Virus record (IMG/VR): IMGVR_UViG_3300025401_000022
Coordinates: 16,309-80,308 of that record
Origin: a virus
DNA: 64,000 bases
Reading direction: 5' to 3' (one strand)
Shown: in pieces, positions 3,707 through 59,142 of the stretch
Layout: each line of letters begins with the position of its first letter
Position numbering within the stretch: position 1 is the stretch's first letter
Notes under the pieces: generated by a model
What the model was told of the DNA's origin: nothing
Seen by the model: only the letters and a program-made list of their open reading frames with translations
Database searches by the model: none
Translations under genes and position numbers: made by a program

Positions 3707-4038
3707 GTTATCTCCTTAATTAGTGGTGACTTATCCTTCCATGAGTCGGTGTCACCGTAGTCACCCCTAATCATGCTCATGCGCTCCTCTTTTCTAAACG
3801 CTGGCTCGATGGCCCACCATGCTAGGCTGGCCTCCTTGTACTCGACCCACGCGTCATTTTCTAAAAACATGGGATGGTTGAGCCCAGCCACGTCCACGGT
3901 GCACACCACGTCACTGGTGGGTTGCCACCCCTTGGCGTTCTTCCTGCGGTACTGCCCCAGCGAGACGTTGTCTCGGGCGCGGATAAAGCGTACGTATGCG
4001 CGGGTCTGTTCGTCTGTTAATTTAATCATCGTGTTCAT
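3703..4038 (-). CDS. Hypothetical early protein
   Basis: ORF track; operon context. Confidence 0.65.
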   Translation of the reverse strand: MNTMIKLTDEQTRAYVRFIRARDNVSLGQYRRKNAKGWQPTSDVVCTVDVAGLNHPMFLENDAWVEYKEASLAWWAIEPAFRKEERMSMIRGDYGDTDSWKDKSPLIKEIT

Positions 4039-4585
4039 CTTCCATCTTGTCTAATTGTAGGGCGTCTAATGACGTTGGTTCTTGCAACATATAAAACTTT
4101 AACTGGTTTACGCGCTTGGTTGTTTTCCCAAGCACCTTGGCCAGCTCCTGAACCGTTGGCGTTCGGCCTAGGGTCTGAGTCAGTGCACGCTCGGTGTACG
4201 TCATCTTGCGTATCTCTTCGCGCACCTTAATCGGTATGCGAACTAGGTTCTCCTCGTCGTCCTGCCCACGCTCTACCCCACGCAGGATAAACCGCTTGGC
4301 AAAGGTCGCGAACTTGGCGCCGTTCTTTGGCACCCACTGACGTGCCGCCTTGATGAGCGCCTCGTTGCCCATGCCAATCAAGTCCTCCTGAGGCGTGCGT
4401 GAGTGGTTCCACGCGGTCAGCTTGCGCACCGTGTACACCACAAAGCGCAGGTTGTGCGTCACTAGCCTGTCCAGTGCCTGCTCGTCACCTTGCTGAATGC
4501 GACGTGACAGCTCGTACTCCTCTGCCGAGTCCAGCACTGGTATGCCGTACAGTGACTGCAGGTAGTCAGTTAAAAAGTCGTTCAT
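4022..4585 (-). CDS. Sigma70-family factor, regions 1.2-2-3 only (no region 4)
   Basis: LTDYLQSL..IPVLDSAEEYELSRRIQQGD..ALDRLVTHNLRFVV (1.2/2.1); EDLIGMGNEALIKAA (2.2); GAKFATFAKRFI (2.3); LVRIP; LGRTPTVQELAKVLG (3); ends QEPTSLD plus acidic tail; start 4585 is coupled to the upstream stop. Confidence 0.85.
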   Translation of the reverse strand: MNDFLTDYLQSLYGIPVLDSAEEYELSRRIQQGDEQALDRLVTHNLRFVVYTVRKLTAWNHSRTPQEDLIGMGNEALIKAARQWVPKNGAKFATFAKRFILRGVERGQDDEENLVRIPIKVREEIRKMTYTERALTQTLGRTPTVQELAKVLGKTTKRVNQLKFYMLQEPTSLDALQLDKMEDEHDD

Positions 4586-4839
4586 TATGAGTCCATCCAT
4601 ATAAGAGTTGTTGCCACGGCCGCGGCTATTAGCAATGGCCACAGCTGTGGAAAGAAAAAACACAACACAATAAATCCAGCCAGTGCCACCATGCCCCTAT
4701 AACCTATCTTGGCAAACAACACTGGAAAGCCCTTGTAAGCCACGTAAAGCAGTTGTGCCGCGGCTATTAGTAACGATACTCCGACGATAAATTGCACCTT
4801 GTGTCCTTTCGATGGTTTATGCCCGTGATGTCCGCTCAA
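4585..4839 (-). CDS. Small membrane protein
   Basis: Mostly hydrophobic; coupled overlaps. Confidence 0.6.
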   Translation of the reverse strand: MSGHHGHKPSKGHKVQFIVGVSLLIAAAQLLYVAYKGFPVLFAKIGYRGMVALAGFIVLCFFFPQLWPLLIAAAVATTLIWMDS

Positions 4840-5015
4840 AATGGTGCCTCCTGCAGTATGGCTACTGCGACTTGGTACGGGTTTGCTTTAGGCTCGCGCG
4901 GTAGTGTCACCAAGCTCATACCATTGGTTAGGTAGGGGGTAGCCTCCAGCTTTGATACAAACTTCCTGCAGGCCCCTCCAAACTCATCCATGAGGACGTA
5001 ACGATATTGGCTCAT
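4836..5015 (-). CDS. Hypothetical early protein
   Basis: Start MSQYRY overlaps the upstream stop. Confidence 0.6.
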   Translation of the reverse strand: MSQYRYVLMDEFGGACRKFVSKLEATPYLTNGMSLVTLPREPKANPYQVAVAILQEAPF

Positions 5016-5212
5016 GGTATGAATGCCTCGCGCTTGAGCTGGTTGCCCAGCTTGTCCTGCAAGTACATCACCACGTCCCACTCGCCGTCGTCGCGGCCGC
5101 GTGAGCGCTCCGCGTTGGTCAGCTTGTCAGCGTACCAGTAAAGCGCACGCTTGATAGCTAGGAACTCCTCCGCGTCGAGGTTTAACTCAAAGCGGTTAGT
5201 GTTGATCTTCAT
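5012..5212 (-). CDS. Hypothetical early protein
   Basis: ORF track; coupled overlaps. Confidence 0.6.
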   Translation of the reverse strand: MKINTNRFELNLDAEEFLAIKRALYWYADKLTNAERSRGRDDGEWDVVMYLQDKLGNQLKREAFIP

Positions 5213-5478
5213 GCTGACACCTTGCGCACGACGACTGCGTCCACTGCCTTAATTGCTGTGACCTTAGCCACAGTAGTCACGTCGCAAAACTCGCGAACTA
5301 ATTTAGGGTCAATGCTGGCTCGGTCGTAGTGTTGCACCTCGGCAATGAAGTCCATTCCTTGGTACTTACCTACACCGCGAGCAATGAGCTCAGCCTTGAG
5401 CTTACGAGCTGTAGATTCGAGCTCAGCGATCTGCTGGTTAATGATTCCTAAGTCGTCGATCATGTTATCTGTAATCAA
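5209..5478 (-). CDS. Hypothetical early protein
   Basis: ORF track; AGGAG RBS. Confidence 0.65.
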   Translation of the reverse strand: MITDNMIDDLGIINQQIAELESTARKLKAELIARGVGKYQGMDFIAEVQHYDRASIDPKLVREFCDVTTVAKVTAIKAVDAVVVRKVSA

Positions 5479-5507
5479 TTTAATTCTCCTTTGTGTGTTT
5501 TCTAAAA

Positions 5508-5753
5508 TTATACCACGACTGATTCGTGCATTGTTTTGTTGATCTCGCGTATCAGGCTTGCGTCCTCAAACCACATAACGCGTGCGTACGTCCTGCGTGT
5601 TGGCTTGCGCGGTGTGCTTTCAGGCGCGTCGCCTGTGTGCACGAACAACGCGAAGGCGTAGCACGCCAGCTTGTCAGTCGCGCACTTGGTTGCGTGCACG
5701 CACCCGTCGCACGGCATTGGCTCATTTAAAAACTTTCTCATTTTAAAGTTCAT
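5508..5753 (-). CDS. Hypothetical Cys-rich early protein
   Basis: PCDGC..C..C; AGGAG RBS. Confidence 0.6.
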   Translation of the reverse strand: MNFKMRKFLNEPMPCDGCVHATKCATDKLACYAFALFVHTGDAPESTPRKPTRRTYARVMWFEDASLIREINKTMHESVVV

Positions 5754-5757
5754 AGTA

Positions 5758-5952
5758 TTACTCCTGATTATCAAGTTGTTCTAGGTCTTCCTGCCACCAT
5801 GCCATCACGGTGCATATATCGCTCCACTCTGCGTCGTACTGGGGATCTTGACCCTCAGGTATGCAGTCCTCGCGATACGCCTCTAGGGCACGCCAAATCG
5901 CGCCAAATTGGCTGTCTCTGTCATTACTGGTTACTGGTTTAAATGTCGCCAT
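5758..5952 (-). CDS. Hypothetical early protein
   Basis: ORF track; AGGAG RBS. Confidence 0.6.
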   Translation of the reverse strand: MATFKPVTSNDRDSQFGAIWRALEAYREDCIPEGQDPQYDAEWSDICTVMAWWQEDLEQLDNQE

Positions 5953-6139
5953 CTTGATCTCCTGTGTCCCAATTGCTTACTGCCACAAATACCTGCTGGA
6001 TGTCGCACTTTGGAAACTTCTCACGCGCGATACTTACAGCCTCATGCGCGTCCTGCGCCCAAAATTGATGCCAGTCATAGTGGCGTGGCTCTTCGTGTGT
6101 TGCCAGTTCAATTGCAAATACTTTAGTCTCGTAGCTCAT
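5939..6139 (-). CDS. Hypothetical early protein
   Basis: Start MSYETK after GAGGAG RBS. Confidence 0.6.
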   Translation of the reverse strand: MSYETKVFAIELATHEEPRHYDWHQFWAQDAHEAVSIAREKFPKCDIQQVFVAVSNWDTGDQDGDI

Positions 6140-6292
6140 GGTGTTACTCCTCATCAAATTCAAAGTTAATAGTTTGCTTGCAGTGCAGGCACTGCTCCAC
6201 ATATATGATGCCGTTGTCACTGACCGCCTCAGTCTGAGCCCCATCGTATGGGCAGGTGAACGGAGCGTCAGCGTCCGCGATAAACACGTCAA

Positions 6293-6571
6293 TCATTTTG
6301 GTCCTTTCTTGCTTTCTCTGAGCACGCGTAGATCTTCGCGATACTGCTCCTTGTTCTCTTCGTACTGGCGACGTGTCATCTCTACGCCACGCTCACCACT
6401 GATTGTAGTCGGATCGGGTCGGCACACTAAAATCATGTCGTCAGGTGACTCGACTGGTACCTCGTACACTGGCTCCCATGGCACGTCAGGTGCGCTGGGT
6501 TGTTTGGACCAAGTCCGTGACACGTAGCGTGCCTCGTCACGTGCCCTACAAATTGCGTTAAGTGATCTCAT
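6293..6571 (-). CDS. Hypothetical early protein
   Basis: ORF track; GGAGG RBS. Confidence 0.5.
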   Translation of the reverse strand: MRSLNAICRARDEARYVSRTWSKQPSAPDVPWEPVYEVPVESPDDMILVCRPDPTTISGERGVEMTRRQYEENKEQYREDLRVLRESKKGPK

Positions 6572-6572
6572 G

Positions 6573-6824
6573 TTAAGCCTCCCATACAGTTAGCTGGGCA
6601 GGGTTCTGCCATTCAGCGAATAAATTATACTTGCGCAGTGTCTCAGTAATCACTGGTGACACGCCGAACTCCCAGTCAGGGATCATGTGCCCGTCATAGT
6701 AGTCACAGAAGTCGTGACCGTCCTCAGCACTAATCCAAAAATTAGGCTGGTCGTCGTGGTACTCACGTACCGCTACGCCTTGTTTTTTGAGCGCGTTGAA
6801 CGCGTTGCGAAAAGCTCTTTTCAT
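6573..6824 (-). CDS. Hypothetical early protein
   Basis: ORF track; GGAGG RBS. Confidence 0.65.
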   Translation of the reverse strand: MKRAFRNAFNALKKQGVAVREYHDDQPNFWISAEDGHDFCDYYDGHMIPDWEFGVSPVITETLRKYNLFAEWQNPAQLTVWEA

Positions 6825-7048
6825 ACTGCCTCCTGTTTCAGAAATAAATTATATAAACCATCTTTGACCTGAGCCAAAGTGTTGCGTACTACATTGGCTG
6901 AGCTCGAGAGCTCGACAGCCAACTCACTATCACCACGCGCATTGGCGCAGTCTGCGAGCTCAGTGAGCTCTTTAATATGCGCTCTGAGCGCATTTTCCAT
7001 CAACAACGCTTGGCGTTGTGTCAGGAATATATCAAAACCTTTTACCAT
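6821..7048 (-). CDS. Hypothetical early protein
   Basis: ORF track; GGAGG RBS. Confidence 0.6.
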   Translation of the reverse strand: MVKGFDIFLTQRQALLMENALRAHIKELTELADCANARGDSELAVELSSSANVVRNTLAQVKDGLYNLFLKQEAV

Positions 7049-7056
7049 ACATCCTC

Positions 7057-7359
7057 CTATTTGATATGAATAAATTTAAAGTGGTCTTTAATAAACTTAT
7101 TAGTATGCGCAATAGCCTGCTTGCGGATCTCGTTGAGCTCCTTGGCGATGTTGTCACCGCTCAGCTCCTTGATCCAGCCACGACCGTACCACTGCTCGTG
7201 GTTAGGGTGGTAGTCCAGCTCGATGCAGTTCTCACCCCACGTGATGCAGAACGACTTGCCACCCTGCTTTAGGTACTCAGCAAGCGTGCGCATGATGACT
7301 GCACGTGATGGCTTGCGCTTGTTGAACTCGATGTCAATTACTGGGAATAGTTGGCTCAT
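7057..7359 (-). CDS. Hypothetical early protein
   Basis: ORF track; GGAG RBS. Confidence 0.65.
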   Translation of the reverse strand: MSQLFPVIDIEFNKRKPSRAVIMRTLAEYLKQGGKSFCITWGENCIELDYHPNHEQWYGRGWIKELSGDNIAKELNEIRKQAIAHTNKFIKDHFKFIHIK

Positions 7360-7404
7360 AAAATCTCCGTTGTGTTGATGTGTCTATTATACTGGGTCAC
7401 TGGC

Positions 7405-7800
7405 TCACTGAGTGAGCTCGTATGGTTTATCCCAGTCGCCTACGTTCAGGTGAAAGTAGTACGCGGTGTCAAAGTAGTCCACCTGCGCGTCCGACTTGTC
7501 ATAGTAGTCCGCGCTCTTAAGCGCGTCAATGATCTCACCGATCACGCGCTGAGGGCGGTGTGTGAAGTGATCTTCGTACCAGTACGGGTTCACTTGGATG
7601 TGGTTGCGTACGTGCAAGTCAAAGTCTTTGCCAGTGGTCTGCTTGAAGTTCTCCATGAAGTCCACTGGGCCACTGCGTAGGGTGCAGGTGATGCTCATGT
7701 GATCCTGCACGCGCAGGCTGTACTTGATGCCCAGTGGTTTGAGCACCTTGTCTAGGTTAGCCTTGATGATCTTCTTCTTGTCTTGGTTCATGTATGCCAT
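7405..7800 (-). CDS. Early protein resembling an LPD29-type domain
   Basis: C-terminal YYDKSDAQVDYFDTAYYFHL; AGGAG RBS; family call is tentative. Confidence 0.55.
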   Translation of the reverse strand: MAYMNQDKKKIIKANLDKVLKPLGIKYSLRVQDHMSITCTLRSGPVDFMENFKQTTGKDFDLHVRNHIQVNPYWYEDHFTHRPQRVIGEIIDALKSADYYDKSDAQVDYFDTAYYFHLNVGDWDKPYELTQ

Positions 7801-7811
7801 GGTGTAGCTCC

Positions 7812-8116
7812 TTATTGGTTATGGTGTAGTTCGTCCATCAGCATGGCCCACTCAATCTCTGCGTCGGTCTGCTCAAGCTCGTCAACGCCGTAGCGTCTCT
7901 CTAGCTCTTCAAGTACTTCGGATAGTGGTAGATCTTTGGTCATGTTAGCTCCTCAAGTTTATGTAGTACATCAGTATAGCCGTCGTTACGTTGCAGGACG
8001 CCGTCCTTGGCGCGTTTAGTAGCTTGGCGTAGGTTGTTGTCAGTGAACTCCCAGTAATGCGTCACAGCCCCGTCTATGGGGTCTGTGTACGTTGCTCTGT
8101 ATCGTTTGTTGGTCAT
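7812..8116 (-). CDS. Two small coupled early ORFs (7812-7943 and 7940-8116)
   Basis: Read by eye; both have AGGAG/GGAGG RBS; below the ORF-track cutoff. Confidence 0.5.
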
Positions 8117-8125
8117 GTTGCCTCC

Positions 8126-8770
8126 TTATGCGGTTTGTAAAGTGCGCCAAGAGCGCGGTGACATCCAAGATTTTAACACCCTGCCAGTACTCTCTTGCGT
8201 GTAGTTGAACCACAAGCGCTGTCCGTCTTGCTGTACTGCTGTCATCACTAACCCCTTGGCGTTGACGCGCTTGTCACCAGCCTGAATGCGCTCGGCTGGT
8301 ACTGGCTTAGCTACTACTGCCAGCTCAGTGCCGTGCACCTTGTCAGCCAGTGCGCTCATCATCTTAGCGAAGTCTTCACCAGCCTTAGCACGGTACGTCA
8401 TCAGGTAAGCCTCATGCTTACGAATGTCTTGTTGGCGATACTCAGGCGCATCGGCAAACAATGCCACTTCTGCTACGCGCTTGCCGTCTACCATCTTCAT
8501 GTAGCCAGTCTTGTACTCGACTGGGTCGTGCATGCCTGCCAGTGTCTCTTCTGCCTTGATGCGCAGGTCGTGGGCTTGTTTTAATACATCAGCGATCATG
8601 CTGTCAGTCTCAGTACGACGCTTTTCAAGCGGTGCGTAGCGGTGACCTTGACATACGCCTTGGAACCAGCCGTTAGCTACTGTGTAGCCGTGAGCTGAGA
8701 TGCCGCCGCGTACTGCCTGCTGACGTCCACAGCACTGGCAGTGACCGCGTGTTTGAGTTGATGTTGCCAT
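8126..8770 (-). CDS. Early protein with N-terminal Zn-ribbon-like motif
   Basis: GHCQCCGR...HGY...GWFQGVC; AAAGGAG RBS directly after the ribozyme. Confidence 0.7.
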   Translation of the reverse strand: MATSTQTRGHCQCCGRQQAVRGGISAHGYTVANGWFQGVCQGHRYAPLEKRRTETDSMIADVLKQAHDLRIKAEETLAGMHDPVEYKTGYMKMVDGKRVAEVALFADAPEYRQQDIRKHEAYLMTYRAKAGEDFAKMMSALADKVHGTELAVVAKPVPAERIQAGDKRVNAKGLVMTAVQQDGQRLWFNYTQESTGRVLKSWMSPRSWRTLQTA

Positions 8771-8793
8771 GGTGATAGCTCCTTTAGTTAATT

Positions 8794-8845
8794 GATCTCA
8801 TCAGTACCAGCCTAACTGGTAGACAGCCGTGAGGCTGTTTCGATC
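8794..8845 (-). ncRNA. Type II hammerhead ribozyme
   Basis: - strand GAUC GAAA CAGCC-UCAC-GGCUG UC UACCAG-UUAGG-CUGGUA CUGAUGA GAUC: complete core, three stems, GUC cleavage triplet. Confidence 0.9.
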
Positions 8846-8995
8846 TTAATATCCAGCATCCCACTGGCATCCGTTGTCAATCCATCGTGCCTCGTCTTTG
8901 GCAGTTTGATAGAGCTCATCTTGCCAGTCGTCATAACCTTGGCAATCTTCTGCGTTATCAAACTCTGTACCGTCTTTGGCGATGTATTTAGTCAT
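8846..8995 (-). CDS. Small acidic protein, first ORF of the early operon
   Basis: MTKYIAKDGTEFDNAEDC...; AGGAG RBS; stop abuts the ribozyme. Confidence 0.55.
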   Translation of the reverse strand: MTKYIAKDGTEFDNAEDCQGYDDWQDELYQTAKDEARWIDNGCQWDAGY

Positions 8996-9017
8996 AGTGA
9001 TTCTCCTATTGATTGGT

Positions 9018-9066
9018 TAGTACTGCCTCGAGAGCACTGCATTGCAATGCGCTCTGAGCACTACTA
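9018..9066 (-). other. Long imperfect hairpin (RNase III-site-like) before the first early RBS
   Basis: tagtactgcctcgagagcactgca / tgcaatgcgctctgagcactacta. Confidence 0.4.
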
Positions 9067-9314
9067 TCTGCCAGCTGTTGGGACACCCTACCCCGCTGGT
9101 ACTTCTTTAGAGCTCCATCCACTGTCTAGGCGGAGCTCACAGGCACCTATGCACCTGATCTGCCACACGTTTTACAAGGCTGGTACTTAGTCACCTTGCA
9201 CTGGTAACGCCAGTGAGTCGATCGCTCGGCTAGTGGGCTCTTCGCTTAGTTACTGCATGACACGCTGAACTGTGGCACCGCTCCTAATCACCTGACTGCC
9301 TTACAACAGACTCC

Positions 9315-9357
9315 ATTATAGTCACAGATATACGCATTTTGATTCCACGATGTGAAA
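9315..9357 (-). promoter_or_regulatory. Putative host-sigma70 early promoter (TATAAT) with palindromic site at about -42
   Basis: TATAAT on - strand at 9320-9315; TTCCACGATGTGAAA at 9343-9357; no clear TTGACA. Confidence 0.5.
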
Positions 9358-9955
9358 TAATTCGGAGTGTGCACTAACATAATTTGGTCACTGGAAAACG
9401 GACAGCTAACCCCCGTGGTTACTGGAATACTAGAGATCTCAGAGAGTTGAGGGGTAAGTATCACCTGATAGCGATCGCGTCTCTATGGCCCGATTAGGGG
9501 CATTGCTGGGGATTCGCTATCGGGCAATATCGCCACCTCACGTCCACCCACCCTCTCAGGCTCTCGCGTGCGCGTACCACTCAGCCACACCACCACACTG
9601 CACCACCGCGCCCACTCCACCACCCCACCAGCCTGCCGTCCCTAGCACACTGCCAGCTCAGCGTCAAGCAATACCCATACTGCCAGTGTGGTTATTAGCT
9701 GGGCCAGCACGCTGGGGCCCGCGTCCACTCTGTCCCCATTACTAGCAGTCAGGGTGGGTGAGTGCCAGCGTGGGGCGCGAGGGGCTGTTCCACATTGTGA
9801 GATGGCGTTCCGCATTGTGGTGGCCCTCCTTTGTGGCGCAGGGTCCCCTTTTTGCCAAGTCGACACCCCGTGAGCAGGTACCCAGGGGGCCGGGCGGAGG
9901 CCCCAGGTCAAAGCTCAAGTTTGTATAATTTTTTATTATTTTTTGTTATATAGAC

Positions 9956-10158
9956 AAAAATGCTGCACTGCATCCTGGATATTTGCCAGGGTACAATTTT
10001 GTATGGTGGCACGATAACCCGTTGATTTTAAAGAACATTATACTTACGATCCACAGTATCCACAGTAGTTTTACTTTTTTTTATTTTTTTTTAAAAAAGA
10101 TAAAAAGATATATAGGGTAATAGTCGTTTAGACCCTGGATACTATGGATACTGTGGAT
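9956..10158. repeat. Origin-like element B (inverted copy of element A)
   Basis: 10045-10072 is the exact reverse complement of 3054-3081; 10136-10158 is the reverse complement of 2969-2991; 9956-9980 is a 25-bp direct repeat of 2876-2900; IHF consensus on - strand near 10015-10027. Confidence 0.7.
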
Positions 10159-10231
10159 AGTGATTACTTTTAGTTATATAGACCGGCCGTTAATATGATT
10201 TTTAGTTATATAGGCCAAAATGCAGCATTGT

Positions 10232-10241
10232 GCGTATTAGT
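10232..10241 (+). promoter_or_regulatory. Phage promoter motif GCGTATTAGT (leaderless ATG 6 nt later)
   Basis: Exact motif; ATG at 10248. Confidence 0.75.
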
Positions 10242-10247
10242 AGGAGT

Positions 10248-10556
10248 ATGAACAAGTACGTTTACCAAATCCAAGGCGCACTGGAAGACAGCAACCAAAA
10301 CCTACTAGGGTTACGAGTGCTGGTGTGTGACCTGCACAATTTTGATTCAGTAGACGTACCAATTGAGGTTTTAGATAAAGAGACAGCTAAGTACTTAGCT
10401 TTTCGTCTAAAACTAACAGACGGCGCCTTGGTTATCCAAAAACTACCCAATGGCGTCATTAACAAAATTAGACTGCTATTAGGCAAATACCTAGATAAGT
10501 GGGTATTGGAAAACTTTCATGGCAATATTGGCAACACAAAAGGTGTTAACCCTTGA
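10248..10556 (+). CDS. Hypothetical protein
   Basis: MNKYVYQIQG...; the track start at 10230 is an artefact of the motif. Confidence 0.65.
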   Translation: MNKYVYQIQGALEDSNQNLLGLRVLVCDLHNFDSVDVPIEVLDKETAKYLAFRLKLTDGALVIQKLPNGVINKIRLLLGKYLDKWVLENFHGNIGNTKGVNP

Positions 10557-11511
10557 CTATTGGAAAATAGCGCAGGACATCAGACCGGGTGACATTGTAT
10601 TTGACAGACTGGGCCGCAAGGTCCGGGTAAAGCTCGTCCACCCCCTGGACAAACGCGCATGTTACCGAGTCACGTTCCTAGATGGAACCTCAGTGGCTGG
10701 GGATAAAGACCTCAAATTGCCAATTGAAACGCCAAAGTACCGCAAAAGGACTTGGGAATACAAAGGCAAATTCCAATTTCGCAGGCCGCTATCCAATCTC
10801 TCCCTTGGAACGCTGTCTGAAATGGAACTGATTAACAAGCACGGTAGGCTTATGTACAGCGTACCGACCGCTGGACCGTTAGAACTGCCCCATAAAGACC
10901 TGCCAGTGCCGCCGTTTGTGTTTGGGTTGTGGTTTTTCTCTAAAAGAAAAGACGGAACCATAAAAATTCCAGAGAAACACTTTGATTTTATTGTGGAAAA
11001 ACTAAAAGACTACGGCTATATACCAACATCTTGGCGTGATCCCATCAAAAAACGCCGGGTGTACAGCACAAAGCCAACTGTCATGTCGCACTTGGCGCCC
11101 AATGTGCCATACAAAATCCCAAACAACTACCTGTTAGCCAGCCCAGAGCAACGTCTTGAGCTGCTTAGTGGGATTATGTATGGAAAACCAAATCAATATA
11201 ACCAAAAGTTAGATAGATTTCAGTTTAGCTCCAAACATTTACCAACAGTCAAACAAATTCAGTACCTTGCTGAGACGCTTGGCTGTAAAACTTTACTTGA
11301 GGGACCCAATCCATTATCAGGATACACGGTCTACATCAAAACAAAATTAAAACTCATGGAACATCAGACCCCAGCGCCAATCAAAGTGCGACAAAACTGG
11401 AGAATGATTACCAAAATTGAAGAAATTACACCACAGGCGTGCGTTCACATCGAATTAGATGGCGACGATAGCACGATGTTGGTAGAAGAAGGATTTATTG
11501 CATGCCTTTAA
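10519..11511 (+). CDS. Free-standing intein-like protein (Hint + degenerate LAGLIDADG), catalytic residues lost
   Basis: AILATQKVLT..WKIAQDIRPGDIVFD (block A); YRVTFLDGTSV (block B, no His); LPVPPFVFGLW; IPNNYLLASPEQRLELLSGI; ITKIEE..ACVHIELD..MLVEEGFIACL (no terminal HN). Confidence 0.75.
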   Translation: MAILATQKVLTLDYWKIAQDIRPGDIVFDRLGRKVRVKLVHPLDKRACYRVTFLDGTSVAGDKDLKLPIETPKYRKRTWEYKGKFQFRRPLSNLSLGTLSEMELINKHGRLMYSVPTAGPLELPHKDLPVPPFVFGLWFFSKRKDGTIKIPEKHFDFIVEKLKDYGYIPTSWRDPIKKRRVYSTKPTVMSHLAPNVPYKIPNNYLLASPEQRLELLSGIMYGKPNQYNQKLDRFQFSSKHLPTVKQIQYLAETLGCKTLLEGPNPLSGYTVYIKTKLKLMEHQTPAPIKVRQNWRMITKIEEITPQACVHIELDGDDSTMLVEEGFIACL

Positions 11512-12947
11512 CACCCGAAGATAAAAAAGAACTGATCAAGTTCGCAGCCGATCGACCACACTGGCCCAAACCAGAGCTTGACGCCGCAATATGGCGCATC
11601 ACTTGGGCTAAACAAGCGTTAGCACACCAACAAGAACCCGAAGATGGAGAGTATGACACGTTCCTTATGCTTGCAGGCCGCGGCTCTGGCAAGACACACA
11701 CTGCTAGCCATTGGATTGGCATTCGTGCTTGGCGCTTCCCCGGCACTCGCTGGCTTGTCACCGCCCCAACCTCTAATGATATTCGTGCAACTTGCTTCGA
11801 AGGAGACTCCGGTCTTCTCAATATCATACCCAAGAGCCTTATACGAGATTACAACAAGTCCCTCTTTGAAATTACCCTCATCAACGGATCAATCATTCAG
11901 GGGATTCCAGCTTCAGAACCAGAACGTTACCGCGGTAAACAATACCACGGAGCTTGGTTCGACGAGCTATGTGCATTCGACTATCTTGACGACGCATACG
12001 ACGGCGTACAGTTCACCTTACGACTTAAAGATCCAAGAATACCCCGTGTCCAGCAGATCATCACCACCACCCCTAAGCCAAGGGAGCTCATTGTCGACCT
12101 CGCCGAAGGTAAAGTCGGTGGCGACGTCTACATGGTCAACGCGTCCTCGTTTGACAACCGGGAAAACCTGTCAGAAACGTTTTTCAAACAGTTAGAGACA
12201 TACGACGGCACCGACATTGGTCGTCAGGAGATCTACGGTGAGATTCTGGACCCAGAGTCCGCCGGTATTATTAAACGTAAGCAGTTCAAGATGTGGCCTG
12301 CTGATAAGCCCACACCAGAGCTGGAGTATGTCCTAGCTTCCTACGACCCCGCTACATCGGAAAAGACACACAACGACCCCACTGCTTGCACAGTATGGGG
12401 AATCTTTGAACAACAAGACGGTGGCACATGCGCAATCCTTCTTGATTCCTGGGACAACCACCTTTCCTACCCAGAACTACGCCGCAAAGTAGTAAATGAT
12501 TTTAAAGAGGTTGTATACGGCGCAGATAATGAGTTTGCTAAGGGCAAAAAGGCAGACCTCATCCTCATGGAAGACAAATCTGCTGGTATCTCACTAATCC
12601 AAGAGCTCAGAGGCGCAGGAGTGCCAGTCCAAGGTTACAACCCCGGCCGCGCGGACAAAGTGCAGCGCCTAAACATCGTAGCACCCCTGGTAGCTAAGGG
12701 AAAAGTGTTCATTCCAGAAGACCCCAAAAAGCCCGGCGAGTTTGCTGACTGGGCAAAGCGTTTTCTGCGCCAAGTCTGTTCGTTCCCTGAAATGGGTGGC
12801 CATGATGACTATGTGGATTCCCTATCACAAGCCCTTCGTATCCTACGAGACGATGGTTGGCTGCAGTTAGACTACCTCCCAGCTAGGGATTATGACTACG
12901 CTGACGATGATGTACGCAAGCGTTTTGCCAATCCCTACGCCCAATAA
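11502..12947 (+). CDS. terL: Terminase large subunit
   Basis: LAGRGSGKT Walker A; AWFDE Walker B; TTTPK; YDPA and HDDYVDSLSQA nuclease motifs. Confidence 0.95.
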   Translation: MPLTPEDKKELIKFAADRPHWPKPELDAAIWRITWAKQALAHQQEPEDGEYDTFLMLAGRGSGKTHTASHWIGIRAWRFPGTRWLVTAPTSNDIRATCFEGDSGLLNIIPKSLIRDYNKSLFEITLINGSIIQGIPASEPERYRGKQYHGAWFDELCAFDYLDDAYDGVQFTLRLKDPRIPRVQQIITTTPKPRELIVDLAEGKVGGDVYMVNASSFDNRENLSETFFKQLETYDGTDIGRQEIYGEILDPESAGIIKRKQFKMWPADKPTPELEYVLASYDPATSEKTHNDPTACTVWGIFEQQDGGTCAILLDSWDNHLSYPELRRKVVNDFKEVVYGADNEFAKGKKADLILMEDKSAGISLIQELRGAGVPVQGYNPGRADKVQRLNIVAPLVAKGKVFIPEDPKKPGEFADWAKRFLRQVCSFPEMGGHDDYVDSLSQALRILRDDGWLQLDYLPARDYDYADDDVRKRFANPYAQ

Positions 12948-12977
12948 GGGCGGATACGTCAAAAACAGCGTATTAGT
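12948..12977 (+). promoter_or_regulatory. Bipartite promoter GGGCG-N15-GCGTATTAGT upstream of portal
   Basis: GGGCG 12948-52; motif 12968-77. Confidence 0.75.
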
Positions 12978-13026
12978 AAATATAAGGGTTGAGTTAGGCC
13001 CACCAAATTCCAAAATGACATAATCT

Positions 13027-16166: not shown

Positions 16167-16196
16167 GGGCGGATTTATCCGCCACAGCGTATTAGT
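16167..16196 (+). promoter_or_regulatory. Bipartite promoter GGGCG-N15-GCGTATTAGT (leaderless ATG at 16203)
   Basis: GGGCG 16167-71; motif 16187-96. Confidence 0.75.
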
Positions 16197-16202
16197 AAAA
16201 GT

Positions 16203-16394
16203 ATGAAAGACTTTATTAGTGAAATTATCGGTCGCGTAAGGACTGAGATACAAAATCATGCGGAAACCGTCACCGCCGGCACTAACATCAACTCGTTTGA
16301 TGATTACAAGCAGTACGTAGGCATTATTCAAGGTCTGCAAATGACTTTAGATATTGTCAACGAAATTCTGACGGAGAATGACGACGAATCGTAA
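16203..16394 (+). CDS. Small head-module protein
   Basis: SFDDYKQYVGIIQGL pattern; lies between portal and GroES. Confidence 0.65.
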   Translation: MKDFISEIIGRVRTEIQNHAETVTAGTNINSFDDYKQYVGIIQGLQMTLDIVNEILTENDDES

Positions 16395-20098: not shown

Positions 20099-20128
20099 GG
20101 GCGCTTTGCCACAAAATAGCGTATTAGT
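20099..20128 (+). promoter_or_regulatory. Bipartite promoter GGGCG-N15-GCGTATTAGT
   Basis: GGGCG 20099-103; motif 20119-28. Confidence 0.75.
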
Positions 20129-20134
20129 AAGTAT

Positions 20135-20200
20135 AGGAAGAATCATCCCTTTCTGACCGCCGAACTTCCCGGTGAGACGACTTAGAGACAGCTAGGGATA
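20135..20200 (+). ncRNA. Candidate structured 5' leader (pseudoknot)
   Basis: ATCCCT/AGGGAT and ACCG/CGGT stems; 5' GGAAG complementary to loop CTTCC. Confidence 0.4.
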
Positions 20201-22278: not shown

Positions 22279-22281
22279 TAC

Positions 22282-25200: not shown

Positions 25201-25356
25201 ACGACTGTAGTAGCGGCAGATGTAGGCGCAGCAACTTGGACAGTAACCGCCACAGCAGATACAACTAATGGTGGATTAGCAATAACAGTAACAGGACAGG
25301 CTTCTACAACAATTCGTTGGGTTGCCAAAGCCGAAACCGCAGAGATGACATTCTAA
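22282..25356 (+). CDS. Tail fibre with (Ser-Gly-X)n triplet tracts and beta-roll-like GG repeats
   Basis: ITQLP..LTGDE N-terminus; two long SGY/SGI/SGW/SGT/SGF tracts; later (I/V)GGGxxN repeats. Confidence 0.8.
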   Translation: MADQSITQLPIATALTGDEQVPVVQRGVTKQASVSQIANAASPGKLITNIIYNPTNGDLVIYYSDGSTEVVGPVSGSSGYSGLSGYSGISGYSGISGYSGISGYSGKSGFSGISGFSGYSGSGVSGYSGSGISGYSGYSGISGYSGISGYSSFSGYSGVSGYSGYSGISGLSGISGYSGTSGWSGISGYSGTSGWSGTSGYSGYSGYSGISGWSGISGYSGYSGTSGWSGFSGFSGYSGISGQQGTSINIKGTVATPADLPPTGNQVNDAYIVSSNGDLYVWSGTSWNNVGEIVGPPGTSGYSGYSGIGTSGYSGYSGYSGVSGWSGISGWSGYSGYSGASGISGYSGTSGYSGTSGYSGTSGYSGYSGTSGYSGTSGYSGYSGVSGWSGISGWSGYSGYSGASGISGYSSFSGYSGISGYSGAIGPSGYSGVSGYSGISGYSGVSGYSGYSGYSGIQAPIGGTNTQIQYNNAGVLGGVPLLTYNGTTLAMTGSTIDSATIGGTTPAAGTFTTLGSTSTASLGTASTTYVQVIGDASYPGIYATGGTNTPLVLQPLGTGALQAQKTTSSATGGNARGANAVDWQTLRNIAAQVAAQTSSVIAGGQNNGVNGSSGTVSGGSGNQVSGAFSTIAGGYSNSLYGQTSVIVGGHLNGTTTQTGFLNFIGGGELNTGTLIAAVTTQATSTITSGSTAVTLSATNAAIKVGQLVTGTPIQSGTGSLPYTYVAAISGTSLTLSQNATSSTNATLSFYTPHGVVVGGGNNQATGAYSFIGGGGDAGTAANRNVASGDYATVVGGKANQATGESAFVGGGGSISGTVYINTASGAASSIVGGLQNTANQIGAFVGGGFNNLANGVYSSIMGGTYGSARSIVGNMVFPATRQPFGAGASAVAQSALLVLGRQTTDATATVLCSDSNAASGTNQVILPNNSAYYFKVRVIAGVTGAGNTKAWTLEGAIKRGAGVGTTAIVGTVTTTVVAADVGAATWTVTATADTTNGGLAITVTGQASTTIRWVAKAETAEMTF
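23224..23507 (+). repeat. Internal ~95-bp duplication in the SGX tract (23224-23318 and 23413-23507)
   Basis: Near-identical DNA 189 bp apart. Confidence 0.7.
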
Positions 25357-25659: not shown

Positions 25660-25669
25660 GCGTATTAGT
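25660..25669 (+). promoter_or_regulatory. Phage promoter motif upstream of the glycosyltransferases
   Basis: Exact motif preceded by a T run. Confidence 0.7.
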
Positions 25670-32002: not shown

Positions 32003-32012
32003 GCGTATTAGT
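32003..32012 (+). promoter_or_regulatory. Phage promoter motif upstream of endolysin, inside an inverted repeat
   Basis: TTTGCGT...ACGCAAA arms at 32000-32027. Confidence 0.6.
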
Positions 32013-32040: not shown

Positions 32041-32562
32041 ATGAATAAGAAGCTATTTTTGGTAGTATGGTTGTTCACGTTGGTTTGGGTAGTTCAAAAC
32101 CTACAGATAACTAAAACAATAGAACGAGACATTGTGGCAATTACAGAATCAACATTCCAGTTTATTACCAACTTTGAGGGTAAACGCAATAAAGCGTACC
32201 GTGACTCCAAGGGCTTATGGACTATTGGCGTTGGTCACCTCATAAAAGCCGATGAAGAGTTCCTAAAGACCATTACCCTGACAGACTACGACGTACAAGA
32301 GCTATTTAAACGCGATTTAAAGTGGTGTGAAGAGGCTGTAGACGAGTCGGTAAGGGTACCCCTTAACCAGAACCAATACGACGCCCTGTACAGCCTGTGC
32401 TTTAATATTGGCGAGACTAACTTTAAAAAATCCGAAGTAGTCCAGCATATTAACAAAAATGACTTAAATGGTGCGGCAAATGCCTTTTTAAACTGGGCAA
32501 ACCCACCAGTATTAAAAACCCGTAGGAAAAAGGAACGGGAGTTGTTTTTAAGGGCGATTTAG
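32041..32562 (+). CDS. GH24 lysozyme endolysin with N-terminal hydrophobic (SAR/signal) segment
   Basis: FEG..AYRD..GLWTIGVGH (E-x8-D-x5-T); LNQNQYDAL.S..FNIG. Confidence 0.9.
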   Translation: MNKKLFLVVWLFTLVWVVQNLQITKTIERDIVAITESTFQFITNFEGKRNKAYRDSKGLWTIGVGHLIKADEEFLKTITLTDYDVQELFKRDLKWCEEAVDESVRVPLNQNQYDALYSLCFNIGETNFKKSEVVQHINKNDLNGAANAFLNWANPPVLKTRRKKERELFLRAI

Positions 32563-32581
32563 CCCTTTTTAGCGTATTAGT
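32552..32581 (+). promoter_or_regulatory. Bipartite promoter GGGCG-N15-GCGTATTAGT
   Basis: GGGCG 32552-56; motif 32572-81. Confidence 0.75.
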
Positions 32582-32628
32582 AGATATAAGGGCTGATCAC
32601 CCGTTTAACCAATAACCTCGAGGAAACC

Positions 32629-38979: not shown

Positions 38980-39009
38980 GGGCGCAAAGCCCCAAAAACG
39001 CGTATTAGT
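38980..39009 (+). promoter_or_regulatory. Bipartite promoter GGGCG-N15-GCGTATTAGT upstream of the ejection-protein operon
   Basis: GGGCG 38980-84; motif 39000-09. Confidence 0.75.
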
Positions 39010-39035
39010 GTATATAGGAACATCTCGGATATAAA

Positions 39036-51387: not shown

Positions 51388-51397
51388 ACTAATACGC
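51388..51397 (-). promoter_or_regulatory. Phage promoter motif upstream of HNH/DNA polymerase
   Basis: Exact motif, fused to the U-tract of a terminator. Confidence 0.75.
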
Positions 51398-53597: not shown

Positions 53598-54116
53598 TTA
53601 AATTGCGAAGTCTGCTGCTGCGGATGTTGCGCCGCCTAACTTCTCACCATCCTCCAACTTCTGTACGTTGTTCAAACCACAGGCGATGCCCTTAGAACCT
53701 TGTGCATTGTATGGATAGAAAGTGATTGAGGCACGGCCATAGCAACCACTGTAGAACTCATTCATATCCATGATTGGATTGAGGTCAGCATCTACAACAC
53801 CGGGCTTTTGTGCGCTGTTGGCATTGATAAAGTATGAGCCTGCATATGCTGGGTCATCTTTCTCTTCGTCGCCGTCGCGCAAGCCGCCCTTAAGACCCTT
53901 AGGTACTGCGCCACCAAAGTAAGCAGCTGCACCTGCTTTAGTGTCTTCGTACGCCTTGGTAATCTTGGCGATAGTTTCCTTATCAGACTTAGGAATAATG
54001 ATTGATACTGAATACTTCGGTGTGCCGCCCTCAACTGATGCTTTTGGTTGGAACACGTTAGCGTATGAAAAACGAACTTTACCAGTTACGATTTTTACTT
54101 TAGTGGCTTGGGTCAT
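53598..54116 (-). CDS. ssDNA-binding protein (DUF2815 type)
   Basis: VRFSYANVF..KYSVSIIIPKSD..LRDGD..YSGCYGRASI..GLNNVQKL.DGE.LGG. Confidence 0.85.
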   Translation of the reverse strand: MTQATKVKIVTGKVRFSYANVFQPKASVEGGTPKYSVSIIIPKSDKETIAKITKAYEDTKAGAAAYFGGAVPKGLKGGLRDGDEEKDDPAYAGSYFINANSAQKPGVVDADLNPIMDMNEFYSGCYGRASITFYPYNAQGSKGIACGLNNVQKLEDGEKLGGATSAAADFAI

Positions 54117-54137
54117 ACAATTTCCTTATTAACATTA

Positions 54138-54173
54138 GTACTGGTCTTCAATAGGTGCCAGCACGTCTAACCT
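54138..54173 (-). ncRNA. Candidate H-type pseudoknot in the SSB leader
   Basis: AGGU/ACCU interleaved with GUGCUGG/CCAGUAC. Confidence 0.5.
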
Positions 54174-54185: not shown

Positions 54186-54195
54186 ACTAATACGC
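54186..54195 (-). promoter_or_regulatory. Phage promoter motif upstream of SSB
   Basis: Exact motif; palindrome TTTCATCATATGAAA at 54213-27; IHF consensus at 54197. Confidence 0.75.
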
Positions 54196-55797: not shown

Positions 55798-55807
55798 ACT
55801 AATACGC
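55798..55807 (-). promoter_or_regulatory. Phage promoter motif upstream of the exonuclease
   Basis: Exact motif preceded by ATTT. Confidence 0.75.
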
Positions 55808-57092: not shown

Positions 57093-57101
57093 AATGCTTT
57101 C

Positions 57102-57359
57102 CTAGAATATTACTGAAACGCCTGATAAGCGCTTAGCTACATTGGTTAGTTCTTTGGTTGTTGCGCCGCTGACAAACTCATTGATCTCGATTGCTTTTTC
57201 AATGACTTCGTGCAGGGTTGGGTATGATGGGGCCAGCTCTTCGGTCTTCTTGGTAGTCTTGTTTAAGAGCTCCCAAGCTGCCATGTTGGCCCTGTATTGT
57301 TCTTCCAAGAAAGTCTTGGCTGTGTTAAATACGGAAAAGCGTAGTTCAAATGGATTCAT
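57102..57359 (-). CDS. Hypothetical protein
   Basis: NPFELR..YPT..VIEKA..FVS; AGGAG RBS. Confidence 0.7.
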   Translation of the reverse strand: MNPFELRFSVFNTAKTFLEEQYRANMAAWELLNKTTKKTEELAPSYPTLHEVIEKAIEINEFVSGATTKELTNVAKRLSGVSVIF

Positions 57360-57456
57360 GTAATTCTCCTGTGTGTGATGTGTGTAAATGCCGTCTTTCC
57401 GGCTGTCAGGCTTCTTTACGCCAAACAGAGGCGTCTCACGACGAGCTCCTATATCT

Positions 57457-57486
57457 ACTAATACGCATTTTTAGGATAAAGCGCCC
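57457..57486 (-). promoter_or_regulatory. Bipartite promoter GGGCG-N15-GCGTATTAGT driving the TerS-containing operon
   Basis: CGCCC 57482-86; motif 57457-66. Confidence 0.75.
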
Positions 57487-58453
57487 TACTCTGGGATGAT
57501 GATCTTGCGTACTGGCTTTTCCTTCTTCTTTTGCTCTTCTTCCATCATCTTTCTAAAAGTCGGCATCATCTCATTGACGATACCTTTAGTCATGGCTTCG
57601 GCCAATAGGCGGTGCTCCATCTCCTGCTCTGCTGTCGTCTTCTTTGTCTTCTCTTCCACTGCTTGGACAATGTTGTTACCAAACTTGCGGTGCTTTAAAA
57701 ACTGGCGAATAAAGTTATCGTTACTCATCTTTTTTAGGTGCCCCCACTTCTAATAACGCTTTAAATTGTGGCTCACCTTGCGCTTGGATCAAAGCGATCA
57801 AGCCAGCGGATGCAACGTAAGGTGCTTGTCCTAAGATGTGGAGGATTGCGTTTACTTGCTTAACGGTAAACTTAAACTCCAAAATTTCATTTTCTAATGG
57901 GTCTTGTTTTTGTACTTCGTCTGTCATTTTTTCTTACCTTTCTTTACTGTTCCGCCTAAATTGGCTAATCCTATTGCTGCTTCTCTTCTTGCTAGTTTTT
58001 CTGGGTCCGTGCAGTACTGGTCTAACTCAAACTTTCGACAATACGTATCCATCAATTTTTCCATACGCATATCGTGCAGTACCTTAATACCGAGTAAAGC
58101 ATTTGCTACTTCGTCTTCAGTCATCGGCGTAATAAAATCACAATGATGCTTAAATAATAAATCAATATCTTCACTGGTCTGCCATGCCACCATGATGGCG
58201 CCTTCTAAATCAATATGGTTGTTCATTTCATCCTCTTCTTTGCTTTTTTAAGTTCTGCTGCAAAATCTACACTAAACCACTTACCTACGGTTTCAATTGC
58301 GGGCAACATTTCTTGGTATGCAGCGATGTCGTCCTCATGCCAAAGTGTTTTATTTTTCAGTGACTGCTTCATGCTAACGTAAGAGTCTGCAAGTGAGTTA
58401 ACTACTACCTGATCTGCAAAGTCGTCATCAATTTCAATCATCATTTTCCGCAC
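57486..58453 (-). CDS. Four small coupled hypothetical ORFs (57486-57728, 57721-57927, 57924-58226, 58223-58453)
   Basis: ORF track; overlapping start/stop codons. Confidence 0.6.
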
Positions 58454-58665
58454 TCCTGTTCGTGGTTAATTCGTTTGGCTATTTCTCTTTCAATGTACCA
58501 GCGAGCCTTACGTAAGTCTTCTACTGCGTCCTTCTTCAAATCGCAGCGCCAAATATATTTCAGTGCGTTGCCAAGGTTAAAGCCCATGTGCTCAGTGATC
58601 TGAATGCACTCGATGCCACTGGGGTGGGCTGTGTAATGTTTAGGCTGGTTGACTGGATCGTTCAT
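58441..58665 (-). CDS. DUF3310 (T7 gp1.7-like nucleotide kinase family) protein
   Basis: DPVNQPKHY..IECI..GFNLGNALKYIWR..EDLRKARWY. Confidence 0.85.
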   Translation of the reverse strand: MNDPVNQPKHYTAHPSGIECIQITEHMGFNLGNALKYIWRCDLKKDAVEDLRKARWYIEREIAKRINHEQECGK

Positions 58666-58834
58666 TTCTCATTCTCCTAAGTTCGTTTTCCACAGCGACA
58701 CACTCTTCCGGGCTCTCACAAACCCAGATTCCCAGTAAATCTTTATATAGGCTAGTGTCAATATCCTCCACACCAGCAATCGTTTCCATAACATATTTGT
58801 CCTTGTACTTGTGCTCCACAATAAAGTAGCTCAT
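58640..58834 (-). CDS. Hypothetical protein
   Basis: ORF track; ATGA coupling. Confidence 0.55.
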   Translation of the reverse strand: MSYFIVEHKYKDKYVMETIAGVEDIDTSLYKDLLGIWVCESPEECVAVENELRRMRNERSSQPA

Positions 58835-59142
58835 AGCTTTAGTTCCTTTTTGATAAACTCCACGCCCTTAAGGAAGTGGTATCGCCAATACTTCTCAGAC
58901 ACGTTTGCCTCGAGGTGTGTTAATCCCTCTAAAAACGCCTCTAATACAAACCGCTCCTTGGCTGGCATCTTGTCTGCGATAAGGCGCTTGATGTCCAGTA
59001 TATCTTCTGCGCTCCACGGTAAGAAGGCCTCTACTAACTCTGTAGAGATGCCGTCGTTATCATCTTGCTCGATAGGGTCCAACTCCTCGTCAGATAGGCG
59101 AGGAGTTGCAGCGTGTACTTTGTGTTTGGTTTTTGTTCTCAT
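58831..59142 (-). CDS. Sigma70 region 3.2/4-like protein (leaderless start)
   Basis: LDPIEQDDND acidic finger; LIADKMPAKERFVLEAFLEGLT..NVSEK.....KGVEFIKKEL resembles region 4 with a shortened HTH; ATG 6 nt after the motif. Confidence 0.55.
   Translation of the reverse strand: MRTKTKHKVHAATPRLSDEELDPIEQDDNDGISTELVEAFLPWSAEDILDIKRLIADKMPAKERFVLEAFLEGLTHLEANVSEKYWRYHFLKGVEFIKKELKL

Follow-up and report, generated by a model that had tools for sequence, protein, structure and literature searches.

A comparison of two widely separated genes in an uncultured tailed phage suggests that this phage makes a two-subunit sigma factor, which is split in region 3.2 and would redirect the core RNA polymerase of its host. 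The stretch of DNA analysed, hereafter ‘the window’, comprises 64,000 nucleotides (nt), that is, bases 16309-80308 of an 80,308-base-pair (bp) viral contig from IMG/VR (record IMGVR_UViG_3300025401_000022) which is rated complete by CheckV and classed as linear by IMG/VR; positions given below are those of the window. The first gene (4022..4585, minus strand) encodes P0001, a 187-residue protein of the sigma-70 family that comprises regions 1.2, 2 and 3.0/3.1 as well as the N-terminal half of region 3.2. The second gene (58831..59142, minus strand) encodes P0002, a protein of 103 residues in which a basic N-terminus is followed by a conserved acidic motif resembling region 3.2 (PRLSDEELDPIEQDD) and by a helical domain resembling sigma region 4 (residues 43-103). 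A preliminary description, prepared from the letters of the DNA alone, had proposed that these two open reading frames (ORFs) are the complementary pieces of a split sigma. Wherever this proposal could be followed up by computation the outcome favoured it, and we regard the split as partly supported and a two-subunit sigma of the kind just outlined as, on balance, probable. Such a two-gene sigma may let the phage time its own gene expression.

Two proteins with complementary break points

P0001 is matched above the Pfam cut-offs by Sigma70_r1_2 (31.5 bits), Sigma70_r2 (27.9 bits; cut-off 24) and Sigma70_r3 (35.3 bits; matched up to model position 52 of 78), as well as by PHROG 351 (sigma factor) with an E-value of 3e-30, and the NCBIfam models of RpoS and RpoD are matched over their N-terminal two-thirds only. 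The protein is devoid of region 1.1 and of region 4: the Pfam search of P0001 for the latter yielded nothing except a sub-threshold 14-bit cross-hit on the helix-turn-helix (HTH) of region 3. In an alignment with RpoD, its C-terminus, which carries the acidic tail EDEHDD, falls on the acidic tip of the finger of region 3.2. Hence, both the Pfam matches and the RpoD alignment bear out the preliminary description of this ORF as sigma regions 1.2-3 that stop at region 3.2 and lack region 4. Within region 2, the motif DLIxxGNxxLxKA of regions 2.1/2.2 is retained, and the Trp dyad and the Gln of regions 2.3/2.4 are substituted (KFATFAKRFILR).

Comparison with homologous sequences indicates that the form devoid of region 4 is the native form of P0001, since 382 homologues are found in public metagenomes, the 120 listed span 171-207 residues, and the distant ones end at the same point as P0001. 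The gene overlaps both of its neighbours: the preceding ORF at its own start codon (TAATG) and the following gene at its stop codon. Genome-wide scans of this genome and of five relatives did not reveal a canonical region 4 above cut-off elsewhere.

We read P0002 as a region 4 because predicted fold, weak Pfam matches, a protein language model and profile-profile alignment agree with each other. (i) An AlphaFold model computed with 24 relatives exhibits a predicted local distance difference test score (pLDDT) of ~90 for residues 45-103, with residues 1-35 being disordered. When this model was compared with 48,161 chains using VIA-align, the top match was region 4 of Streptomyces SigR (Z-score 7.4; root mean square deviation 1.7; 57 of 65 residues), and nearly all of the 30 matches with a Z-score of at least 5 were sigma region-4 domains, which ranked above LuxR/GerE domains. 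A viral structure library gave the same sigma-4 picture, and Foldseek likewise ranked sigma-4 domains first, albeit with E > 1. (ii) Sigma70_r4_2 (PF08281) is weakly matched by seven out of 27 diverse members of the P0002 family (best E 0.0046), and no other Pfam family recurs in more than two of these 27. (iii) The nearest named clusters obtained with the protein language model ESM are stand-alone PF08281 proteins of ~110 residues. (iv) Profile-profile alignment with hhalign of the P0002 family against the C-termini of seven sigmas (the last 105 residues of Escherichia coli RpoE, FecI, FliA and RpoS, of Salmonella RpoD and RpoH, and of one cyanophage sigma) yields a probability of 79.8% and P 1.4e-5 over 85 colinear columns, as compared with P of at least 0.25 for the controls (reversed plus 20 column-shuffled). 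The colinear span aligns the acidic PRLSDEELDPIEQDD with the D.IED part of region 3.2 and then runs through regions 4.1 and 4.2. The register is unchanged when RpoE alone is used (P 0.048), and the single sequences of RpoH, RpoD and the cyanophage sigma gave a blank, the comparison being informative only against the seven-sigma alignment.

From these comparisons we conclude that P0002 is, as far as sequence and predicted fold can tell, a diverged homologue of the C-terminal part of region 3.2 and of region 4. Fold (Z-score 7.4) and profile homology to both linker and region 4 thus sustain what the preliminary description had seen in this ORF, namely an acidic 3.2-like segment followed by a region-4 pattern with a shortened HTH, the shortening being evident as a four-residue deletion in the profile alignment.

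All of the 462 homologues of P0002, which are metagenomic and ~100-110 residues long, are stand-alone proteins, and the family shares the invariant helix (S/T)EKYWRYHF. A profile search of 1.84 billion representative proteins retrieved 33 clusters of the P0002 family only, none of which is fused to an N-terminal half of a sigma. A further protein, P0256 (229 residues), was considered as a fusion of sigma and region 4 and was rejected, its C-terminal part being unrelated to sigma. That P0002 is nowhere fused to sigma, that stand-alone Sigma70_r4_2 or GerE proteins of ~110 residues are common, and that GerE and FixJ are the only HTH proteins which the P0002 sequence profile finds in the PDB (E 0.7-1.2) would also be in line with a free-standing DNA-binding regulator derived from sigma-4, which acts as an activator or repressor at the GGGCG element described below, or at another site, beside a P0001 holoenzyme and off the beta-flap. 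We consider such a regulator rather unlikely, considering that its acidic motif aligns with the region-3.2 linker of sigma and not with the receiver or linker of a regulator, that sigma-4 folds outrank those of LuxR/GerE, that GGGCG is located at the exact -35 position of sigma-70, that the homology of P0002 starts precisely where P0001 breaks off, and that the complex predicted with the beta-flap passes weakly.

The last two points deserve comment in the context of the favoured two-subunit sigma. P0001 ends where the homology of P0002 to sigma starts, so the break points in region 3.2 are complementary, which is what had been proposed for the two pieces. Their charges are complementary as well, the N-terminus of P0002 being basic and the C-terminus of P0001 acidic, also in a distant clade, and we speculate that the N-terminus of P0002 pairs with the C-terminus of P0001. 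The complex predicted for residues 40-103 of P0002 and residues 831-1057 of E. coli RpoB scored 0.56, and the highest-scoring of three controls reached 0.05; at least 88% of the contacts are shared between runs, and the partner pLDDT is 82 or more. In the calibration of this score, the mark was reached by 58 out of 80 solved complexes and by two out of 110 mismatched pairs, and scores of 0.60 or below were seen in only seven of the 80 solved complexes and in both mismatched pairs that passed, and the verdict of the tool is weak support. The small protein may dock on the flap, yet the pass may reflect likeness because complexes of sigma-4 with the flap have already been solved; E. coli serves here as a stand-in for the host.

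Promoter elements and their covariation with sigma

The exact 10-mer GCGTATTAGT occurs 14 times in the window, as compared with ~0.1 copies expected by plain arithmetic, and 17 times if up to one mismatch is allowed (shuffle mean 3.95, shuffle maximum 9). Every copy is oriented with the local genes, and none is found in the two stretches of small early ORFs, that is, 2873-9911, which includes P0001, and 59160-63964. In six of the 14 copies (class II), GGGCG precedes the core at a distance of exactly 15 nt, and TATA(A/G)G or a close variant of it starts 4 nt downstream of the core; a seventh has GGGCT at the -35 position, inside a terminator hairpin. When the last T of GCGTATTAGT is set at -7, ATTAGT represents the -10 hexamer, a G is located at -14, GGGCG spans -36 to -32, and the A of TATAGG is at +1; GGGCG is then 17-18 bp upstream of the -10 hexamer, which is the canonical spacing of sigma-70. 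The stretch between GGGCG and the core is variable and often cannot form a hairpin, and GGGCG is therefore best viewed as a sequence element and not merely as one half of a stem. A generic scan for sigma-70 promoters remained at background level, and the literal pattern GGGCG-N14-20-TANNNT was rejected since it is not enriched (one match versus ~9 expected), the real element being GGGCG-N15-GCGTATTAGT.

The copy that bears most directly on the two proteins is the class I core at 59149..59158 (minus), which is devoid of GGGCG and lies within the final codons of the helicase gene and ends 6 nt short of the P0002 ATG. The region-4 gene has thus its own -10-only promoter, as had been predicted, and owing to the position of this core its mRNA would be leaderless; the transcription start sites given above are likewise deduced from the sequence. 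Among 79 related loci, 52 have a core variant adjoining the P0002 ATG, 50 of them at the same 6-nt spacing and two shifted by one base. The spacing of 6 nt is also observed in the related genomes G001 and G002, where the variant matches the other promoters of the respective genome, and the C-terminal residues of the helicase change together with the core variant.

Comparison of related genomes reveals how core and sigma change. GCGTATTAGT is used in G000, G001, G003, G004 and G014, which encode sigmas that are 79-91% identical to P0001 and which contain 10-11 exact copies each where counted. The core is TTGCATTAGT in G010, which has a sigma of 53% identity, whereas G002, with a sigma of 49% identity, contains no exact GCGTATTAGT and exhibits TTGCATTAAT at the orthologous promoters, a core close to an extended -10 element (TGcATTAAT); GGGCG is at the same offset in G002 as in the window, and TATAGG is unchanged. 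The sigma of the compared genomes differs at the positions of regions 2.4/3.0 that read the -12 to -15 bases in sigma-70, and the recognition helix and the N-terminal acidic motif of P0002 are invariant. The promoter core covaries with sigma, while GGGCG and the P0002 helix stay fixed.

Orthologous genes of G000, G001 and G002 have promoters of the same class, with core-only promoters at the genes for primase, P0002 and exonuclease, at that for the single-stranded DNA-binding protein (SSB) and at the first packaging gene, and with GGGCG promoters at the portal gene, the gene following the head gene, two positions in the tail region, and a cluster of small ORFs with endonuclease VII. The co-conservation of both motifs expected from the preliminary description is thus found. 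For many of its proteins G002 (loci L094-L097) is close to the window (head 97%, terminase 84%, ribonucleotide reductase 83% and helicase 80% identity; other core proteins 60-97%). Among its core proteins, the sigma (49%) and the sigma-4-like protein (57%) have diverged most, and rapid switching of transcription specificity within the clade is suggested.

The contiguous arrangement core-N3-TATAGG resembles promoters of single-subunit polymerases, and four large late proteins (344-1093 residues) have no family match in the PHROG and Pfam scans. It might be argued that the 10-mer and TATAGG constitute the promoter of an unrecognised phage RNA polymerase and that the sigma proteins have other targets. 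This appears very improbable indeed: the core covaries with sigma, the core of G002 reads as an extended -10 element, GGGCG is located at sigma-70 spacing, and the large unassigned proteins belong to a tail module downstream of such a promoter. A match to PF00940 (T7-like RNA polymerase) is likewise missing, in a search where control genomes cannot match PF00940 either.

The remaining copies follow the two main transcription blocks of the window. On the minus strand, class I cores are located at 2829..2838, upstream of the primase-helicase gene (the ortholog is class I in G001 and G002), at 54186..54195, upstream of the gene for a gp2.5-like SSB, and at 55798..55807, upstream of the exonuclease gene. 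The core at 51388..51397, just past a terminator hairpin and upstream of endonuclease and DNA polymerase genes, is the one with GGGCT at -35 and is ambiguous with respect to class. A class II promoter (GGGCG-N15-GCGTATTAGT-N3-TATAGG) at 57448..57486 precedes small ORFs, an ORF weakly resembling the small terminase subunit, and endonuclease VII, and is class II in G001 and G002 also. On the plus strand, a class I core at 10232..10241 marks the start of the packaging and structural block. It is followed by class II promoters at 12948..12986, upstream of the portal gene (of class II in G001 and G002 too), at 16167..16205, with GGGCG at the fixed offset and AGTATG as downstream element, and at 20099..20137, downstream of the head gene. 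Class I cores at 25660..25669, upstream of a glycosyltransferase cluster, and at 32003..32012, in the structural block, are followed by class II promoters at 32552..32590, in the same block, and at 38980..39018, upstream of large tail-end genes.

Several additional features were observed beside these promoters. A DUF2815 RNA motif (RF03084; 66.1 bits, E 5e-11) is located at 54114-54173 (minus), in the leader that separates the SSB gene from its class I promoter at 54195; it is the only match obtained when the whole window was scanned with Rfam at gathering thresholds. Collagen-like tail-fibre genes at 22282-25356 and 28356-29873 (plus) flank a glycosyltransferase-like gene (25743-26960) which has its own class I promoter. 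The early operon and the packaging genes diverge from region 9912-10229, which contains GTTATATAG(A/G)C three times, behind T-runs; these copies may represent an operator or a promoter of early genes.

In the distant contigs L102-L105, a search for motifs returned a cassette resembling a ribosome-binding site and palindromic repeats only, and no clear promoter set. Six AGAAAGGCACAAGAGAAATGA cassettes are located at 17025-18116 of L105, right at the starts of consecutive small ORFs, and resemble a recurring ribosome-binding/start module more than a promoter. Contig L103 exhibits, at 2522-2731 and 2215-2330 / 10174-10260, clusters of palindrome GTGAGCGCTCAC and GCGGGGGT repeats on both strands, which may be operators or an origin.

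Linkage, co-occurrence and genome setting

P0001 and P0002 are encoded on the same (minus) strand, and the linear contig places them 54 kb apart. Measured in the opposite direction, the distance is ~25 kb if the DNA is assumed to be circular or circularly permuted (the contig being classed as linear), and ~13 kb of these are taken up by a block of tail-fibre, ejection and endolysin genes on the opposite strand. Five long relatives have both genes, on one strand and separated by 7.5-11 kb, with the sigma gene upstream. The separation of ~54 kb to which the preliminary description had drawn attention holds for the linear contig, but not for the relatives, where it is 7.5-11 kb or ~1 kb; it is an artefact of the linearisation of the contig plus the intervening module.

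Among five further long fragments that carry a relative of P0002, two encode the sigma, and the three contigs without it are fragments of 58-67% completeness that end short of the expected position of the sigma gene. All four contigs with P0002 relatives of only 27-33% identity encode a short sigma comprising regions 1.2, 2 and 3; there, the sigma-4-like gene shares an operon with the primase gene and precedes the sigma gene by ~1 kb. Overall, both genes are found on 11 of the 14 contigs that carry a P0002 relative, including all three complete genomes. The two parts are retained together in the relatives, complete and distant ones alike, so that the co-occurrence anticipated in the preliminary description is observed.

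In the clade of the window, P0002 directly follows an SNF2-type helicase gene in the replication module and is not adjacent to P0001, and one might thus view the two genes as functionally unrelated, with P0001 being a lone sigma for -10-only promoters and P0002 an HTH protein of the replication module that merely resembles region 4. The co-occurrence of both genes across deep divergence, the location of the sigma-4-like gene ~1 kb from sigma in the distant operon and not beside a helicase, the complementary truncation points, and the presence of an element at the -35 position which needs a reader make this view quite improbable.

PHROG scans of the window indicate the genome of a tailed phage, with a T7-like replication set on the minus strand (family-A DNA polymerase, ribonucleotide reductase, gp2.5-like SSB, exonuclease, endonuclease VII, SNF2-type helicase and primase-helicase) and the packaging, head and tail genes on the plus strand. 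The closest isolates, as judged by the large terminase, are the Caulobacter phages RW and GB2A (41-42% identity). A nucleotide search with both gene regions against 50,697 phage records gave no match, and tblastn with P0002 returned nothing relevant.

Two observations concern the plus-strand genes. Upstream of the window, bases 134-13480 of the contig (locus L089) represent the 13-kb block of tail-fibre, head-closure-like, DNA-ejection and endolysin genes, which sits between two minus-strand early/replication blocks and has no correctly oriented copy of GCGTATTAGT. The block may have been acquired or may stem from a rearrangement, since the relatives keep the sigma and the sigma-4-like genes in one uninterrupted block. 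Furthermore, the overlapping ORFs 10519-11511 and 11502-12947 both match PHROGs of the large terminase, the former weakly and to N-terminal parts, the latter to the nuclease/ATPase body.

The proposed holoenzyme and known split sigmas

The two-subunit sigma which we favour would operate as follows. The host holoenzyme would presumably transcribe the motif-free early operons, including that of P0001, and P0001 would then bind to the beta-prime clamp helices and read the extended -10-type core GCGTATTAGT by virtue of its regions 1.2, 2 and 3. For the class I promoters (primase, SSB, exonuclease and P0002 itself) P0001 alone would be enough. Engineered sigma-70 devoid of region 4 initiates at extended -10 promoters. 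The region-4-like domain of P0002 would subsequently be placed on the beta-flap, with its acidic linker threading toward the C-terminal tail of P0001, and would read GGGCG at -36 to -32 so as to switch on or boost the class II promoters (portal, head, tail and others). In this clade, the outcome would be a feed-forward programme of early, middle and late expression. Binding of both proteins to core polymerase, reading of GGGCG by P0002, and the timing are what we infer from the features described above.

It is possible, and we put this forward tentatively as the less probable outcome, that a leaderless mRNA, transcribed from a -10-only promoter served by the N-terminal half, encodes the region-4 half, that the promoter repertoire is thereby widened in time from core-only to core plus GGGCG, in a self-assembling sigma cascade of two steps, and that the pair of sigma and -10 element has been swapped (GCGTATTAGT, TTGCATTAGT, TTGCATTAAT) with the pair of sigma-4 and -35 element being kept. 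If this is true, the modules for recognition of -10 and -35 are independently evolvable units.

A number of results weigh against the two-subunit sigma or parts of it. (i) P0002 itself falls under every threshold of Pfam, NCBIfam and PHROG, with no Pfam family being found even at E <= 10, and searches of the PDB with profiles of the P0002 family alignments yielded no sigma, the chance matches having E-values of 0.3-1.5. (ii) The fold Z-score of 7.4 is below 8 and thus within the range where a common helical arrangement can account for a match, and the probability of homology to sigma is ~80% and not >95%. (iii) The first HTH helix of P0002 is four residues short, with residues 72-82 forming a non-helical loop in the model, and reading of DNA by P0002 is therefore uncertain. 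(iv) GGGCG is often located within a hairpin, and some of these hairpins, at 51397 and 32572, are terminator-like. (v) GGGCG is found at five of the eight promoters of the structural block and at one to two of the six of the replication block. There is no clean functional split, so that the assignment of GGGCG to morphogenesis genes in the preliminary description survives as a tendency and not as a rule. (vi) Distant relatives carry the sigma-4-like gene in an early operon together with sigma. The temporal cascade, likewise part of that description, is consequently not universal and clade-specific at best, and is only partly supported.

The shortened HTH and the overlap of several GGGCG elements with hairpins, together with the weak pass of the flap prediction, might also suggest that P0002 is a co-factor like gp33 of phage T4, which acts next to gp55, a phage sigma devoid of region 4. 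Such a co-factor would bind to the beta-flap, block region 4 of host sigma-70, thereby shutting down the host's -35-dependent transcription, and aid the truncated sigma without reading DNA, and GGGCG would then be part of a hairpin or terminator, or be read otherwise. However, GGGCG is invariant and located at a fixed offset between variable flanks, and many copies are hairpin-free, so that a sequence-specific reader is needed; the second HTH helix of P0002, its putative recognition helix, moreover does not vary and contains many Lys, Arg, His, Tyr and Trp residues. Nor is there similarity to gp33 of T4 (hhalign P 0.48, against a single-sequence template of limited sensitivity) or to gp33 of phage SPO1 (P 0.14). 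T4 gp33 is also not among the 50 fold matches listed for P0002, which gives no sign that the folds differ. All told, we consider a gp33-like role distinctly unlikely and prefer P0002 as the subunit that would read GGGCG.

If confirmed, the two-subunit sigma would be of interest for several reasons. It would constitute a natural experiment on the role of the covalent link through the RNA exit channel, show how a holoenzyme devoid of sigma-4 uses extended -10 promoters, and show how the specificities for -10 and -35 can evolve, and be timed, independently of each other. Synthetic biology would gain compact, orthogonal sets of sigma and promoter in two parts, and the genomes of a large clade of uncultured freshwater phages, with hundreds of metagenomic variants, could be annotated with the help of a promoter grammar.

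Split sigmas are known from few systems and, to our knowledge, none of these cuts a group-1-like sigma at the 3.2 finger and leaves a recognisable homologue of region 4. The two-subunit sigmas on record are gp55/gp33 of T4, gp34/gp33 of SPO1, SigO-RsoA of Bacillus subtilis and Sig7-Sig8 of Tn916 (bioRxiv 10.64898/2026.10.01.756105; PMC12867686), and in open-access papers and preprints we found no description of a sigma with regions 1.2-3 that is paired with a separate region-4 homologue. T4 gp55/gp33 resembles the system proposed here in that a phage sigma devoid of region 4 is joined by a small partner (~100-110 residues) which takes the place of region 4 on the beta-flap, with a -10-type element providing the main specificity (bioRxiv 10.64898/2026.10.01.756105; PMC12867686). 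However, gp55 is reduced to a core resembling region 2, whereas P0001 keeps regions 1.2, 2 and 3, and T4 gp33 is not a homologue of sigma-4 and does not read DNA, whereas P0002 appears to be homologous to sigma-4. The late promoters of T4 lack a -35 element and need the sliding clamp, in contrast to the GGGCG found here at the -35 position; no clamp gene was noticed in this genome, in which no search aimed at clamps was made.

SPO1 gp34/gp33 is close in size (197 and 101 residues, as compared with 187 and 103 residues for P0001 and P0002), and its small gene precedes that of the sigma, an order also seen in the distant relatives described here. The late promoters of SPO1 have both -35 and -10 elements. 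The proteins themselves differ: gp33 of SPO1 belongs to Pfam PF25742 (Phage_Gene33; E 1.9e-38), to which P0002 has no match at E <= 10 and its relatives none at E <= 1. SPO1 gp34 comprises region 2 and a weak signal of region 4 without region 3, and shares with P0001 only a 55-residue match in region 2.

In SigO-RsoA and Sig7-Sig8, the parts that read -10 and -35 likewise reside on separate proteins, both of which are needed on RNA polymerase (bioRxiv 10.64898/2026.10.01.756105). By description, these pairs resemble sigmas of the extracytoplasmic function (ECF) type, with region 2 and region 4 on separate subunits encoded by adjacent genes of a bacterium or a conjugative element. Here, by contrast, a sigma resembling groups 1/2, with regions 1.2 and 3 included, would be cut in region 3.2 in phages of lytic type, the genes being 1-25 kb apart and the region-4 gene being proposed to be under the control of the N-terminal half. 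Finally, the use of extended -10 promoters by laboratory truncations of sigma-70 that retain regions 1.2-3 fits the class I promoters described here, most clearly the G002 core TGcATTAAT. Those truncations are engineered fragments, whereas P0001 is a natural and conserved product.

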